Assembly: GCA_949289125.1 (NCBI GenBank)
Contig: CASEME010000013.1
Location: 7,712-71,711 of the forward strand
Direction: 5' to 3'
From: an uncultured Eubacteriales bacterium
GTDB taxonomy: Bacteria; Bacillota; Clostridia; Christensenellales; CAG-314
Length of the DNA: 64,000 bases
Position numbers and translations under genes: made by a program. Shown one piece after another: positions 24,684-36,158 of this stretch; position 1 is the stretch's first letter; each line of letters starts with the position of its first letter. The notes beneath the pieces are model-generated. The model was not told the origin of the DNA. It ran no database searches and worked only from the letters and a program-made list of their open reading frames with translations.

Positions 24684-24735
24684 TTACAACAGCGGTGTAA
24701 ACAGCATCAAGAGGCGACAAAAGATGCGTTGCAGT
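24684..24735. repeat. left copy of 52-bp direct repeat (displaced copy of the cls 3' end)
   Basis: TTACAACAGCGGTGTAAACAGCATCAAGAGGCGACAAAAGATGCGTTGCAGT matches 36107-36158 at 51 of 52 positions. Confidence 0.95.
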
Positions 24736-24904
24736 CACTGCCGATCGGCAAAAATTAAAGAAAGTAAAAGTGTAAAAATAGAATTAATTAGGTAATGATA
24801 CAAGAAAAGGTCATTACTAAAACTATAAATAATTGTTATTGCAATCATTTTTTGCTATACTAATAATTGTATTAAGGTTAGTCTTATAATTGCAGGAGGA
24901 GATA

Positions 24905-27144
24905 ATGCGTTATAAAAATTTATTTGTTGAACAGCATGATAGCAATGACTGTGCCGCTGCGTGCCTAGCAATGGTGAGCAAATATTATGGGAAAGATTTT
25001 TCTATAACGAAGTTGCGTGATGTGTTAGGCACTGACATACAAGGTACTCCGCTAAAAGGTTTAGTTGATGGGGCGAAACGATTAGGATATGATGCAAAAC
25101 TTGTGTCAATCACTAAGGAAGTTATACATGATAAATTCACTCTGCCTGCAATATGTTATGTTAGAAACTCGTTTGGTGCAGGGCATTTTGTGGTGTTGCA
25201 AAAAGTATATAGAAAAAAAGTATTGATACTCGATCCCGCCATAGGCGTAAAAAAAATCAAAATAGATGAGTTTTTTAATTTTTTCGATGGTTACATAGTT
25301 TTTCTATATCCAAACAATGGCTTCAAATTGAATAACAATAAAGAAAAATCTACCACTTTCAAGCAATTCATGGCTTTGTTAAAACCACAAAAAAAGTTAT
25401 TCATTTACGCTATCGTGGCGTCAATCTTCCTTACAGTTTTAGGTATCTTTTCATCGTTATTCAATAAGGTTATGATGGATGAAGTATTGCCTTATTACTT
25501 GAAAGATCTTTTAATAGCATATAGTATCGGTTTTGGGTGCGTTGCAATAATTAGGGTAATATTAGGTGCTGTTAGACAACATTTAGTCCTTTATCTGTCA
25601 CAAAGAATAGACTTGCCAATGATGTTATCATACTTTAAACATGTTTATCGATTACCGATTAACTTTTTTGCGACAAGAAAAGTTGGTGACATTACAACGA
25701 GATTTCAAGATGCTTACGTTATTAAAAATATTCTAACTAATGCAATGTTGACATTGATCATTGACATATTGTTAGCAGTTGTTACAGCAATAATAATGAT
25801 ACTTATGAGTTGGCAACTTTTTTTGGTTATTTTAGCAATTACAGTATTAAGTGGTATATTGATATATTGTTATAAAGGACTGTACAAAAAGTTAAACAAA
25901 AGCAAATGGAGCAGGGGGCTAGGTTAAATTCTCAAATAATTGATACACTCAAGGGTATAGAGACGGTCAAAGTAAACGCCTATGAAGATACTGTGCTTGA
26001 TAAGGTTGAAAATGAATATGTCAAATCACTAAAAATAGATTTTAAGCAGGGCTTTCATTCTAACATACAAAGCAGTTTCTCGCAAATAATCACCGGCATA
26101 GGTAACATAGTTTTAATGGCAATGGGTATTTGGCTCGTGATAGAAAATAAAATTACTATCGGTACAGTTTTGGCTTTTATGACTATAGCTGGCTATTTTA
26201 TGGATCCTATAGGCAGATTGATTGAATTACAGCTACAAATACAAGAAGCTGACATATCTCTAAAACGCTTATCTGAAATCTATGATGTTGATGAAGAAGT
26301 AGAGCATGAGAGTCAACTTGATAGTATTGATGTTGTTGATGGCGATATTTCAGTAAAAAATGTTAGTTTTAGATATGGTTCGAGACCATTAGCACTAAAC
26401 AATATTACAATTGATTTGCCAAGAGGTAGTAAAATAGCTTTAGTTGGTGAGTCAGGTAGTGGAAAAACAACTGTGACTAAGCTATTAATGAAGTTTTATG
26501 ACTTTGAACAAGGTGAAATTTTCGTCAATGGAAAGTCTATTAAAGACATCAATGCTTTTTCATTAAGACAAAACATAGGTTATGTACCACAAAGTATTGA
26601 AATGTTCAGTGGTACAGTTATTGACAATATAAAGGTAGGTAAGCCTGATGCTACAGACGAAGATGTAAAATATGCTTGCGAGATATCAGGCTGTAGTAAA
26701 TTTATTAATCGTTTGCCTTTTGGGTATCAAACTTTTCTAGACGACACAGGTGGTGGTTTATCAGGTGGTGAAAAACAGCGTATTGCAATAGCAAGGGCAT
26801 TATTAAAACGACCAAAGTTTTTAATTTTGGACGAAGCAACTAGTAGTTTGGACTTTAATACCGAACGAGAAGTTTTTGATTTATTGTTTAGTAAATTACC
26901 TAATACAACAATTTTAATTATAGCTCATAGGTTAAGTACTATCAAAAATTGTGATATGATTTATGTATTTGACAAAGGTAAAATTGTTGAGTCGGGTAAG
27001 CATGCTACTCTGTACTATAAACGAGGACTATATTATCAAATGTGTGACGCACAAACAGGTAATGGTTACACAAGCTATAGATCATCATTGTCAACTATAA
27101 CATCAAAAATAGAGCCCAAAGGAGGAAACGAAATTGAATACTAA
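24905..27144 (+). pseudogene. peptidase-C39-domain bacteriocin ABC transporter (PCAT), split by a 1-nt frameshift near 25903
   Basis: The N-terminal C39 domain has QHDSNDCAAACLAM and GAGHFVVL. A TMD follows, then an NBD with GESGSGKTT, LSGGEKQRIAIARAL and ILDEATS. The two ORFs (24905-25927 and 25906-27144) join as ...KKLNKSK/MEQGARLNSQIIDTLKGIETVK if one A is restored. Confidence 0.85.
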
Positions 27145-27622
27145 TAGACAACAAAGAGTATTGAATGTAGAAGAAAATAAAGTTTTGAAATTACACAAGG
27201 TGCTAAGAAAAGATTTGTCAGAAACAGAAGCTTCTAATTTATCACAGACTTTGCAATCTTTTCAAGCCTACATTAAAGCAAGAGGATTAACAGCTCGTGG
27301 TCCATTGATTACATATACAAAGACAGAAGTTGTTGATGGTAATGCAACGTTAAAGACTGCAATTATGTCTCAAGTTGAGGCTAAGCCTAATACATCTGTA
27401 GCTTATCCATACAGTTATACTGAAGAGTTGCGTGTTCCTAATTGTTTGTATGTAAGGTATAATGACAACCAAGACTATTTGCAGATAGCTTATAATAAAA
27501 TAGGTGTTTATGCTTTTGAAAACTACCTTAATTTGACATGTTCAACATATAGTATTCATTTGGCTAATGGACAAACTTATATGTGTGATATTTTTGCTGA
27601 GGTAATAAAGGATGGCGAATAA
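27134..27622 (+). CDS. hypothetical 162-aa cytoplasmic protein (possibly GyrI-like/effector-binding fold)
   Basis: Overlaps the ABC stop by 11 nt and the HlyD-like start by 11 nt, so it is translationally coupled. No TM segment. The fold guess is weak. Confidence 0.6.
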   Translation: MNTNRQQRVLNVEENKVLKLHKVLRKDLSETEASNLSQTLQSFQAYIKARGLTARGPLITYTKTEVVDGNATLKTAIMSQVEAKPNTSVAYPYSYTEELRVPNCLYVRYNDNQDYLQIAYNKIGVYAFENYLNLTCSTYSIHLANGQTYMCDIFAEVIKDGE

Positions 27623-28691
27623 ACCAAAACAATACCGCTTTGAAAAATTCACTGATAGCTACATTATGTACCACAAAAAAGTACCCAAATTTTTGTTTGT
27701 AATAATAACAATAATTTGTTTAGCTGTTGTAGGCTTTTTTGTGTGGTCAGCACTTGTACAAAAAACATCTGTCATTAAAGTTCAAGGTGTAGTCACTGTT
27801 GAAGATAAAACGCCGTTAACTGTACTAACTAATGCAAAAGTTACAGAAGTATTTGTGACAGAGGGTGCAACTGTCAGTACAGGTGATAAAATATTGCAAT
27901 TAGACACAACAGAAATTGATTTGCAGATATCACAGTTGCAACCATATATTGATTATTACCAAGAGCATTTAGCTCTATATGACAGGCTAATTACATATAC
28001 AAAGAATAACTATTCCAAAGATGAGGAAGGCAACTGTTTTGACAAAGATGATATAGTGGAACTAGAGTTTTATAATTATATGAGTGCATTTGAAAATGCC
28101 AAGAAAGAAGCTCAAGGTTTGCCCAATCAGGAAGAGTATGTGCAACAGATAATAAGTCAGTATCTTGACAACTATTATACTCAACGCAATTCGTTGAGTG
28201 TGGAGTTGGATAAGTATAATTCACAGCTAGACAGTTATATCAAAAGTAAAGCCAATTATATCGTAACAGCTAATAGTGATGGTATAGTACACTTTGACTC
28301 TACAGTTACACAGGGTACATTTTTGCAAGCGGGTATGTCCATAGGCTCTGTATTTGATCCCAACGATAGTCTGTATGTTGAGTGCTATGTATTATCTCAA
28401 GATAGACCAAACATCAATGTTGGAGATAGTGTTAAAATAGCATTGAACGGAGTTAGTCAAAACGAATATGGCGTTATCAATGGCAAATTGAATACATTAT
28501 CTTCCAATGCTACAATGTCAGAAGATAATTATTACTATATAGGCAAAGTCGATTTAGAGAAGACACTATTAGAGTCTAATCAACAAAATATTAGTCTATC
28601 TGTTGGTATGACTTGTGAGACAAGAATAATATATCACCAAACATCATACTTATATTATTTTTTGGAGCAATTAGGCATAAAAATAAAATAA
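27612..28691 (+). CDS. HlyD-family bacteriocin secretion accessory protein
   Basis: 359 aa. It has an N-terminal TM helix (FLFVIITIICLAVVGFFVW), a lipoyl-like segment VTEVFVTEGATVSTGDKILQLD, a coiled-coil middle region and a beta-barrel C-terminus. Confidence 0.8.
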   Translation: MANKPKQYRFEKFTDSYIMYHKKVPKFLFVIITIICLAVVGFFVWSALVQKTSVIKVQGVVTVEDKTPLTVLTNAKVTEVFVTEGATVSTGDKILQLDTTEIDLQISQLQPYIDYYQEHLALYDRLITYTKNNYSKDEEGNCFDKDDIVELEFYNYMSAFENAKKEAQGLPNQEEYVQQIISQYLDNYYTQRNSLSVELDKYNSQLDSYIKSKANYIVTANSDGIVHFDSTVTQGTFLQAGMSIGSVFDPNDSLYVECYVLSQDRPNINVGDSVKIALNGVSQNEYGVINGKLNTLSSNATMSEDNYYYIGKVDLEKTLLESNQQNISLSVGMTCETRIIYHQTSYLYYFLEQLGIKIK

Positions 28692-35465: not shown

Positions 35466-36051
35466 TTTATAAGTAAAGTACTAATGGTTAAATAGTTAAT
35501 AAACATTAATTAAAAGTTGTAGTATGAAGTATGAAAAGTGGTAGAGGGGAATGTATATTTGACAGATATATTTAGTACCTCAAATATTGTTTGTTATCGC
35601 TTTTGATTATTAGTGTAGAGTTGTAATTTTTTCTAAAAATATTAAATAATTTTTCACTAAAATGTTAATAGAATTTACAATTTTTACTAAATGACTGTTT
35701 AGCGTGCCTATATTATATACAAGTGTCGGAGCAAAGCTCCGCCGAATACAGGCACGCAAAATAGTGCAATGCAAGTAAAAGTACTGTAAAATGACAAATG
35801 CAATAGAGACGAAAAAGGCGTTCAAGCAAAACCACTTGTTAATAGTCATTTTGTACAGCCTTTACTTTGTTGGTGGGGATGTAGAATATGCATTAGAATT
35901 TTTCCGTGTTCATAGTTAAATAAAGTTTTGTATTAGTAACTAAATGGCAACACATAGCAGACACTGTTTTTACAGTGTGTCAGTGCATATAGCAATTTTT
36001 ATTGTTGTATACGTGTGCATGCATACTCACAAAAAATAATAACACTAATAT

Positions 36052-36082
36052 AGCCCTCTGCAATTAAGTTGTGCAGGGGGCT
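36052..36082. terminator. hairpin at the island/cls junction (convergent terminator candidate)
   Basis: AGCCCTCTGCA-N9-TGCAGGGGGCT (one G:U pair on the + strand), 25 nt beyond the cls stop. Confidence 0.45.
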
Positions 36083-36106
36083 ATGTTTGCTTTATTATAT
36101 TCAGTT

Positions 36107-36158
36107 TTACAACAGCGGTGTAAACAGCATCAAGAGGCGACAAAATATGCGTTGCAGT
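36107..36158. repeat. right copy of 52-bp direct repeat (functional 3' end of cls)
   Basis: It begins exactly at the cls stop codon (the rc of TTA at 36107-36109) and covers the last 16 codons. Confidence 0.95.

Follow-up and report, generated by a model that had tools for sequence, protein, structure and literature searches.

A probable integrative-element relic at the cls 3' end, with bacteriocin and polymorphic-toxin modules, in an uncultured Eubacteriales bacterium

Cis-mobilizable elements (CIMEs) retain the attachment sites attL and attR and lack the genes for integration and transfer (PMC6323972, PMC7563491). Bacteriocin synthesis is among the functions listed for elements of this type (PMC6323972, PMC7563491), and their mobilization in cis has been documented (PMC6323972). 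Here we describe an 11.4-kb AT-rich island between prfB and cls in the genome of an uncultured Eubacteriales bacterium. The analyzed stretch of DNA comprises 64,000 nucleotides of contig CASEME010000013.1 and is called the window in the following. The island is flanked by two copies of the 3' end of cls and also carries adaptive cargo, namely a predicted bacteriocin locus (module 1) and a putative toxin cassette (module 2). With a probability of roughly 60% the region goes back to an integrative element which was inserted site-specifically into the 3' end of cls and has since decayed to a CIME-like relic. The features which frame the island are:

23394..24425, plus strand: prfB, peptide chain release factor 2 (PCRF E 2e-60, RF-1 E 1.5e-44), left flanking core gene
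24426..24683, no strand assigned: 258-bp spacer with a promoter-like site (24535-24563) and a terminator (24618-24648)
24684..24735, minus strand: left repeat copy, made up of the final 16 cls codons and the stop in displaced position and interpreted as the relic of an att site
24736..24777, no strand assigned: inner left end of 42 nt, common to strains without module 1
35878..36106, minus strand: inner right end of 229 bp, kept in all strains, with a hairpin and T-run
36107..36158, minus strand: right repeat copy, the functional last 16 codons and stop of cls
36107..37633, minus strand: cls, cardiolipin synthase (PLDc_2, PLDc, PLDc_N), right flanking core gene and presumed insertion target

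The two direct copies of the repeat at 24684-24735 and 36107-36158 are identical in 51 of 52 positions, the sole mismatch being G at 24723 versus T at 36146. Shuffled sequence yielded no match to the 52-mer (0 in 100 shuffles), and a blastn-short search of the window revealed no further copy. Read on the minus strand, the right copy translates to LQRIFCRLLMLFTPLL*, the C-terminus of the cls product (last 16 codons and stop), which is a PLD-type cardiolipin synthase of 508/512 amino acids. At the mismatch ATA stands against ATC, both encoding Ile, and the difference is thus synonymous. The original prediction had described the repeat, its identity with the end of cls on the minus strand and its single synonymous difference in the same way, and all of this was reproduced. 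Similarity can be prolonged by 3 nt to 24681/36104 (53/55). The identity covers the last 16 cls codons plus the stop and ends within 3 nt of the stop codon. Both edges are sharp: beyond 24736 there is no fading similarity to cls, and the likeness breaks off abruptly on either side of the 52-55 nt. An insertion precisely at the stop codon had been proposed as well. A boundary at the stop is indeed compatible with the sequence, but it is one drawing only, since the crossover may have occurred anywhere in the 52 nt.

To its left the island is flanked by secA and prfB, to its right by cls and tsaD. Windowed GC content amounted to 0.41-0.49 in the flanks and to 0.25-0.35 between the repeat copies; calculated by segment, prfB had 0.479, cls 0.429 and the island 0.31-0.32. 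The sharp drop described between the copies (from about 0.45 to about 0.31) was confirmed, but the DNA is already AT-rich before the left copy begins, with a GC content of 0.357 in the spacer at 24426-24683. Intergenic DNA is often AT-rich, and we read this spacer as the probable ancestral prfB-cls intergenic region.

A locus without the island was found in a distant relative (L171). Its gene order, metK-recD2-comF-secA-prfB followed by convergent cls, tsaD, a P-type ATPase gene, an M32 peptidase gene and rlmL, is the order of the window. The cls stop and the prfB stop are separated by 305 bp, and only a single cls 3' end is present. Identities to the window are 71% for prfB, 69% for tsaD and 57% for cls. 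Since the flanks are adjacent in this relative and contain one cls end, the island represents an insertion. The left copy of the window lies 258 bp from prfB, to be compared with the 305-bp gap of the relative, and left copy and spacer together look like the original cls end and intergenic region, displaced by 11.4 kb of AT-rich DNA. The view that the duplicated cls end reflects integration into the 3' end of a gene is supported by the single end in this relative and by the 52-mer not being a dispersed repeat (two copies only in the window, no match in IMG/VR).

An empty site was thus obtained from a relative, but none from the same species, neither among recorded contigs nor in 12 public metagenome runs. 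The organism is rare, its exact cls and tsaD products being known from just 4-5 contigs; each of these that reaches past the cls stop carries island DNA. The exact 508-aa cls product occurs in four contigs, and three of the loci (L081-L083) have island DNA beside cls. The only variant with 98% cls identity is located on a 3.3-kb contig which extends no further than 60 nt beyond the stop; this contig matches the right end of the island. After this variant cls identity falls to 57%, and GTDB genomes and JGI metagenomes contained no cls closer than 56% identity. Three relatives with tsaD-cls (L001, L002, L088) have a transketolase gene downstream and are uninformative on the site. One metagenome run (X6) harbors a second, more abundant relative (depth 15) on contigs aligning at 24684-24733 and 36106-36196. 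Its cls 3' end is about 85% identical to the 52-mer and is followed by different DNA; this organism may be a closer empty-site candidate than L171.

No gene for an integrase, resolvase, transposase or relaxase was detected among all island open reading frames (ORFs) with Pfam and NCBIfam. In addition, all stop-free stretches of at least 30 aa left over in six frames of 24426-36160 were scanned (157 pieces, 6,813 residues). This six-frame profile search, which had been proposed together with the observation that no recombinase, transposase or relaxase ORF lies inside, gave no recombinase remnant; the sole match was at chance level (E 0.27). The rest of the 64-kb window likewise contained no recombinase, its ORFs of at least 200 aa being housekeeping genes or having no Pfam match. 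Genes for a coupling protein or VirB4 were absent from the island ORFs, the six-frame leftovers and the window, and neither Rfam families nor tRNA genes were found in the island.

These findings place the island close to the CIMEs. It has direct repeats of 52-55 nt which include the end of the target gene and occur in two copies only, and neither the island ORFs, nor the six-frame leftovers, nor the window contain genes for integrase, relaxase, coupling protein or VirB4. A repeat which is the exact end of cls, with sharp edges, an intact gene on one side and foreign DNA in between is the pattern expected of an attP which restores its target gene. The incoming DNA would have carried an attP copying the last 16 cls codons and the stop. 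Integration would have left cls intact by means of the right copy, and the original 3' end, still attached to the old prfB-cls spacer, would have been displaced by 11.4 kb to become the left copy. Recombination and transfer genes would later have been lost. The residue would be a fixed, probably immobile chromosomal islet with two modules for interbacterial antagonism, whose content changes among strains by internal deletion, duplication and homologous exchange and not by recombination at the repeats. A tyrosine-type integrase presumably made the repeats, and the islet is probably no longer mobile. The decayed integrative element was the best fit among the three options of the original prediction. 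An insertion mechanism beyond naming, another of these options, is not required, because att-flanked elements without recombination genes are already described as CIMEs (PMC6323972, PMC7563491).

Positions 22000-39000 and both junctions were aligned with assembled contigs of the 12 metagenome runs. Runs with this species derive from bird, chicken-gut and other gut metagenomes. X1 and X2 contain the window strain. In X3 and X4 the flanks are 97-98% identical to the window, and the contigs pass through the left repeat up to 24777 and diverge beyond. About 300 unlike letters follow before the match resumes at 31034; thus, these strains lack module 1 and have kept module 2. X5, X6 and X7 match the window rightward of 35878 and diverge to the left. 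X6 possesses module 1 at about 90-97% identity and no module 2, X5 has only the protease of the window cargo, and X12 has the flanks and almost no cargo. The spacer is conserved in X3-X5 and X12, and the 229-bp inner right end is also matched by contig L168. Compared with each other, the two inner ends share a single 10-mer and no further motif. The hairpin and T-run at about 36045-36082 may serve as the present terminator of cls. All cargo breakpoints are internal (24777, 24810, 31034, 31674, 35878), none at the repeats. Consequently, the island is not a single element which arrived as a block: strains of the species keep both repeat copies, but one or both of the modules are missing or replaced. 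Two apparent joints (24400 to 37854 and 24295 to 38636) comprised only 21-22 letters each and were discarded as chance, and the minimal variant suggested for X4 by a link from 34108 to 24774 found no confirmation.

The repeat copies themselves differ between strains. In X3, X4, X5 and X12 the left copy is distinct from the strain's own cls end, and two distinct copies were retained by all strains of the species whose coverage was sufficient. None of the left-copy contigs of X3 and X4 differs from the window at 24714 (G) or 24717 (A); those of X5 and X12 end at 24712 and 24714 and show no repeat difference over the covered part. The cls copies of all four strains have A at 36137 and G at 36140. 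X5 and X12 show two further changes in cls, G at 36122 and A at 36125, and every one of these differences falls on a third codon position. The G at 24723 is unique to the window, other left copies having T. Left and right copies thus mismatch at 2-3 positions in X4 and X3 and at at least 2 in X5 and X12. According to the simplest reading, the duplication arose once, before the strains split, and the copies would since have drifted independently and not been homogenized by repeated excision and re-integration; it is this independent drift which dates the duplication before the split. The junction check suggested earlier gave no sign of excision: across the 12 runs no contig joined 24683/24735 to 36159, as in a site with a single repeat, and none joined 36106 back to 24736, as in a circle.

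Several results weigh against a relic of this kind. Assembled contigs cannot reveal rare excision events. Remnants of integrase, relaxase or conjugation genes were not found in the island, and because of this the descent from an integrative and conjugative element (ICE), an integrative and mobilizable element (IME) or a prophage is deduced from the repeats only. An integrase-bearing element with the 52-mer was not found either, IMG/VR giving no match to it, and the island had no match among phage and plasmid records. A repeated cls 3' end within 10 kb was observed in 0 of 158 other cls loci; neither these loci nor a brief literature search offered a precedent for cls as integration target, cls appearing in the literature as cargo only. 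Finally, the sole empty site is that of L171, a distant relative with 57% identity in cls, whose spacer is too divergent to be aligned to either junction, and the exact attB is therefore not defined.

Two alternatives appear unlikely, about equally so. According to the first, the repeats have remained active as attL and attR of a functional CIME. An integrase (and an excisionase), whose genes would lie at another place in the genome or on a related ICE or IME integrating in tandem, would excise the islet and move it in trans or in cis. The 51/52 identity of the copies in the window strain fits this, as do the conserved 42-nt and 229-nt inner ends, which resemble shared att arms in strains with differing cargo, and mobilization in cis has its precedent in the CIME class (PMC6323972). 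However, the 12 metagenome runs contained no junction of an empty site or a circle, the copies diverged independently in X3, X4, X5 and X12, with the mismatches given above, and the cargo differs at internal breakpoints away from the repeats. Moreover, the window contains no integrase and IMG/VR no element with the 52-mer. A bolder version, in which the prfB-cls junction of this uncultured gut Clostridia lineage is a recombinase-less docking site with live att copies, the integrase being supplied by another part of the genome or by a visiting element, is improbable too. If it were true, bacteriocin and polymorphic-toxin cassettes would be loaded and unloaded here, and the 42-nt and 229-nt ends would be the arms read by the integrase.

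The second alternative is a RecA-dependent single crossover of the Campbell type with circular or looped DNA bearing the cls 3' end, for example from an imprecise excision. A single crossover between circle and chromosome gives exactly the observed geometry and accounts for the absent trace of a recombinase. On the other hand, a length of 52 nt is close to the minimum for efficient RecA recombination. Homology which stops at the stop codon and the sharp other edge would be left unexplained, and an earlier event would be needed to place the cls end on foreign AT-rich DNA.

It is very unlikely that the left copy is no att site and is instead left over from an additional cls gene, or from a segmental duplication involving the end of cls, whose body was deleted or overwritten by incoming DNA. 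A gene-end fragment beside an unstable, indel-prone region would suit such a decay, and the island does contain internal duplications. Against this, the similarity stops abruptly on both sides with nothing cls-like beyond 24736, the six-frame scan of the island found no remnant of a PLD domain, and L171 has one cls with one cls end.

Insertion by the host Xer system at a dif-like site, as in integrative mobile elements exploiting Xer (IMEX), or by a transposase with target-site duplication can each give rise to an element which encodes no recombinase itself, yet both are extremely improbable here, as the repeat belongs to the coding sequence of cls and lacks an AT-rich palindromic core like that of dif (IMEX having dif-like 28-bp sites at the replication terminus), the cumulative GC skew climbs through the region without the turn that a replication terminus would give, and transposons and insertion sequences have a transposase, terminal inverted repeats and a short duplication, whereas no transposase and no terminal inverted repeats were found at the island and 52 nt is far longer than known target-site duplications.

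The cargo of the probable relic falls into two separate modules, as had been proposed. Module 1 (24890-30730) comprises:

24890..27144, plus strand: C39-peptidase ABC bacteriocin exporter in two ORFs, 24890-25927 and 25906-27144 (Peptidase_C39, ABC_membrane, ABC_tran)
27134..27622, plus strand: 162-aa protein with a weak DUF5085 match (PF16895 E 7e-5, under the curated cut-off)
27612..28691, plus strand: HlyD-type bacteriocin secretion accessory protein (HlyD_3, TIGR01843, TIGR01000)
28793..29053, plus strand: double-glycine-leader peptide A, predicted class IIb precursor (TIGR03949; leader ...EMEYLDGG)
29208..29843, plus strand: DUF3267 membrane zincin-like protein with HELIHG motif (PF11667 E 1.3e-20)
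29906..30326, plus strand: duplicated block of HlyD 3' fragment (ORF 29910-30137), promoter and second peptide leader (direct repeats D2-D4)
30247..30510, plus strand: double-glycine-leader peptide B with Gly-rich mature part, leader DNA 93% identical to that of peptide A
30515..30730, plus strand: 71-aa two-helix membrane protein, called as a gene in independent assemblies, no Pfam match

From its gene content module 1 is predicted to be a class IIb bacteriocin locus, with two double-glycine-leader peptides, a C39 ABC exporter and an accessory protein. Peptide A scored 24.9 bits against TIGR03949 (lactobin A/cerein 7B family; cut-off 21.5), and peptides A and B have the leader MEAVKGLRLPTTYVEV..EMEYL.GG in common. 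The two exporter ORFs together span profile TIGR01193, the first aligning with positions 1-326 and the second with 327-707. A single-base frameshift within a run of A residues separates them; the run is A4 at 25898-25901 in the window, and independent assemblies of the window strain have the frameshift as well. Contigs of X6 and X8 contain one extra A in this run, and there the exporter is intact. The run may mark either a pseudogene or a slippage-prone on/off site. The DUF3267 protein is a candidate for immunity or processing, and the 71-aa membrane protein a candidate for bacteriocin immunity. Direct repeats D2-D4 connect 28433-28872 with 29906-30326 at 76-93% identity; the duplicated block includes a promoter at 30184-30211 (11/12 match) and is probably the trace of a cassette recombination.

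Module 2 (30965-35465) and the small ORF which follows it comprise:

30965..31684, plus strand: secreted S1C trypsin-like serine protease (Trypsin_2 E 4.6e-20), first gene of module 2
32312..33520, plus strand: polymorphic-toxin-type protein of 402 aa with an N-terminal domain (residues 25-203), a hydrophobic stretch and a C-terminal Cys/His domain, putatively of papain fold
33541..34350 and 34656..35465, plus strand: two paralogous 269-aa lipoproteins (tandem repeat D1, 87% DNA identity, spacing 1115)
35610..35849, minus strand: small ORF of 79 aa with hydrophobic N-terminus, crossing a hairpin, no Pfam match, status uncertain

The composition of module 2 corresponds to that of a polymorphic toxin system, in which a shared N-terminus is combined with alternative toxin C-termini. 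Full-length relatives of the 402-aa protein are rare (four among 5.8 billion sequences). Its N-terminal domain of 180 residues, however, heads 190 representative proteins, and no Pfam model exists for it (residues 25-203). The domain ends with N-x-G-W-[FL]-S-x-L-x-K, followed by an Ala/Val-rich hydrophobic stretch. Several of the 74 scanned members have a known toxin domain at the C-terminus, from eight families in total, Ntox35, Tox-REase-5, Colicin_D, Tox-GHH, Tox-PL-2, WHH, Colicin-DNase and Ntox37, and LXG, WXG100, Rhs or any other known trafficking domain was not detected in the 74 members. Cys261 and His355 are invariant in the C-terminal domain of the toxin. In a structure model of moderate local confidence, which gave weak fold matches, this domain weakly resembles papain-fold enzymes. 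The expectation that the cargo might be an undescribed system applies in part: a class IIb bacteriocin locus and a polymorphic toxin/immunity cassette are known types, but the N-terminal domain of the toxin is without a Pfam model.

The protease gene lies directly upstream of a toxin gene with the same N-terminal domain in the window and in two further loci (L172, L173), which suggests a role in release or processing of the toxin. In L172, a contig of X5, a different toxin gene (DUF4474) comes after the protease gene, and a gene for a DUF5104 lipoprotein after that. After each toxin gene of L169, L172 and L173 a small or lipoprotein gene was found; in L169 it encodes a homologue of the window lipoproteins (35% identity), directly after the toxin homologue. 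The lipoproteins are, from this gene order, immunity candidates. Their copy number varies, as expected of immunity genes: X3 has one, the first copy is truncated (215 aa) in L083, and X4 shows several variants. The protease is 74% identical to its homologue in the L173 species, where prfB, tsaD and secA reach just 58, 52 and 47%, respectively. This suggests horizontal transfer, and the L173 protease locus is also located in a local GC dip. The cassette therefore appears to move horizontally at loci without any integrase.

Positions 35752-35843, the first 30 or so codons of the small ORF behind module 2, are found again in X3, X4 and X6, in different sequence surroundings, with about 89% nucleotide identity and at comparable depths. 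The ORF could be a gene for a small membrane peptide common to several organisms or elements. In the prfB-cls spacer a near-consensus promoter, TTGACT-17-TATAAT, is followed by a strong terminator about 55 nt downstream. A stretch of roughly 90 nt within 24535-24650 (plus strand) has a fold z-score of -4.4, and no Rfam match was obtained for 24535-24650. This stretch may encode a small RNA or short structured transcript.

Some observations concern the remaining window. Two very large ORFs are without a Pfam match, 43035-47369 (plus strand, 1444 aa) and 1795-7404 (plus strand, 1869 aa). The first of them is split into 326 + 1044 aa in contig L082. L083 (1-660) and L086 (11311-11969; ERZ16268199 scaffold_2706) depart from the window inside the P-type ATPase gene (window 39138 onward), the assembly being otherwise 99.98% identical. 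A 267-aa ORF then follows, indicating a rearrangement or an insertion; no family was found for the ORF which replaces the ATPase gene in L083.

The islet is most likely an old scar and not a fresh insertion; it is a mosaic and not one element, and no new mechanism is needed for it. It is a real but fairly ordinary feature, with cls as a target for which no precedent was found, and it leaves the understanding of integrative elements unchanged. It does illustrate that an integration scar can outlast all trace of its machinery and become a fixed chromosomal slot in which strains of one species keep different weapons against competitors. Such an islet would escape island finders based on integrases; a repeat of a gene's 3' end and a syntenic empty site suffice to call it. 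The more useful lead is the toxin family of module 2, which comprises about 190 representative clusters and in which the pairing with a secreted S1 protease recurs. Together, toxin family and S1 protease could be a Sec-dependent route of toxin release in gut Clostridia.

Among known systems, module 1 resembles class IIb loci of the lactobin A/cerein 7B type in its two double-glycine-leader peptides, the C39 ABC exporter, the HlyD-type protein and the genes for small membrane proteins. It differs from them in the frameshifted exporter and in the second peptide, which lies in a duplicated block with an HlyD fragment. Module 2 has in common with polymorphic toxin systems the shared N-terminus with varied toxin ends, the adjacent candidate immunity gene and the strain-variable content; unlike in those systems, the N-terminal domain is without a Pfam model and an S1C protease is encoded directly upstream. 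As a whole, the islet comes closest to the CIMEs and other decayed ICE or IME derivatives of Bacillota, for example the CIMEs at the 3' end of fda in Streptococcus thermophilus. In both cases the 3' end of a housekeeping gene is intact, direct repeats consist of a gene end, and genes for integrase, relaxase and conjugation are missing. In contrast to these elements, the islet has no known cognate ICE or IME and no remnants of its descent, its duplication is fixed in all sampled strains, and its content changes by internal events and not by accretion at att sites.

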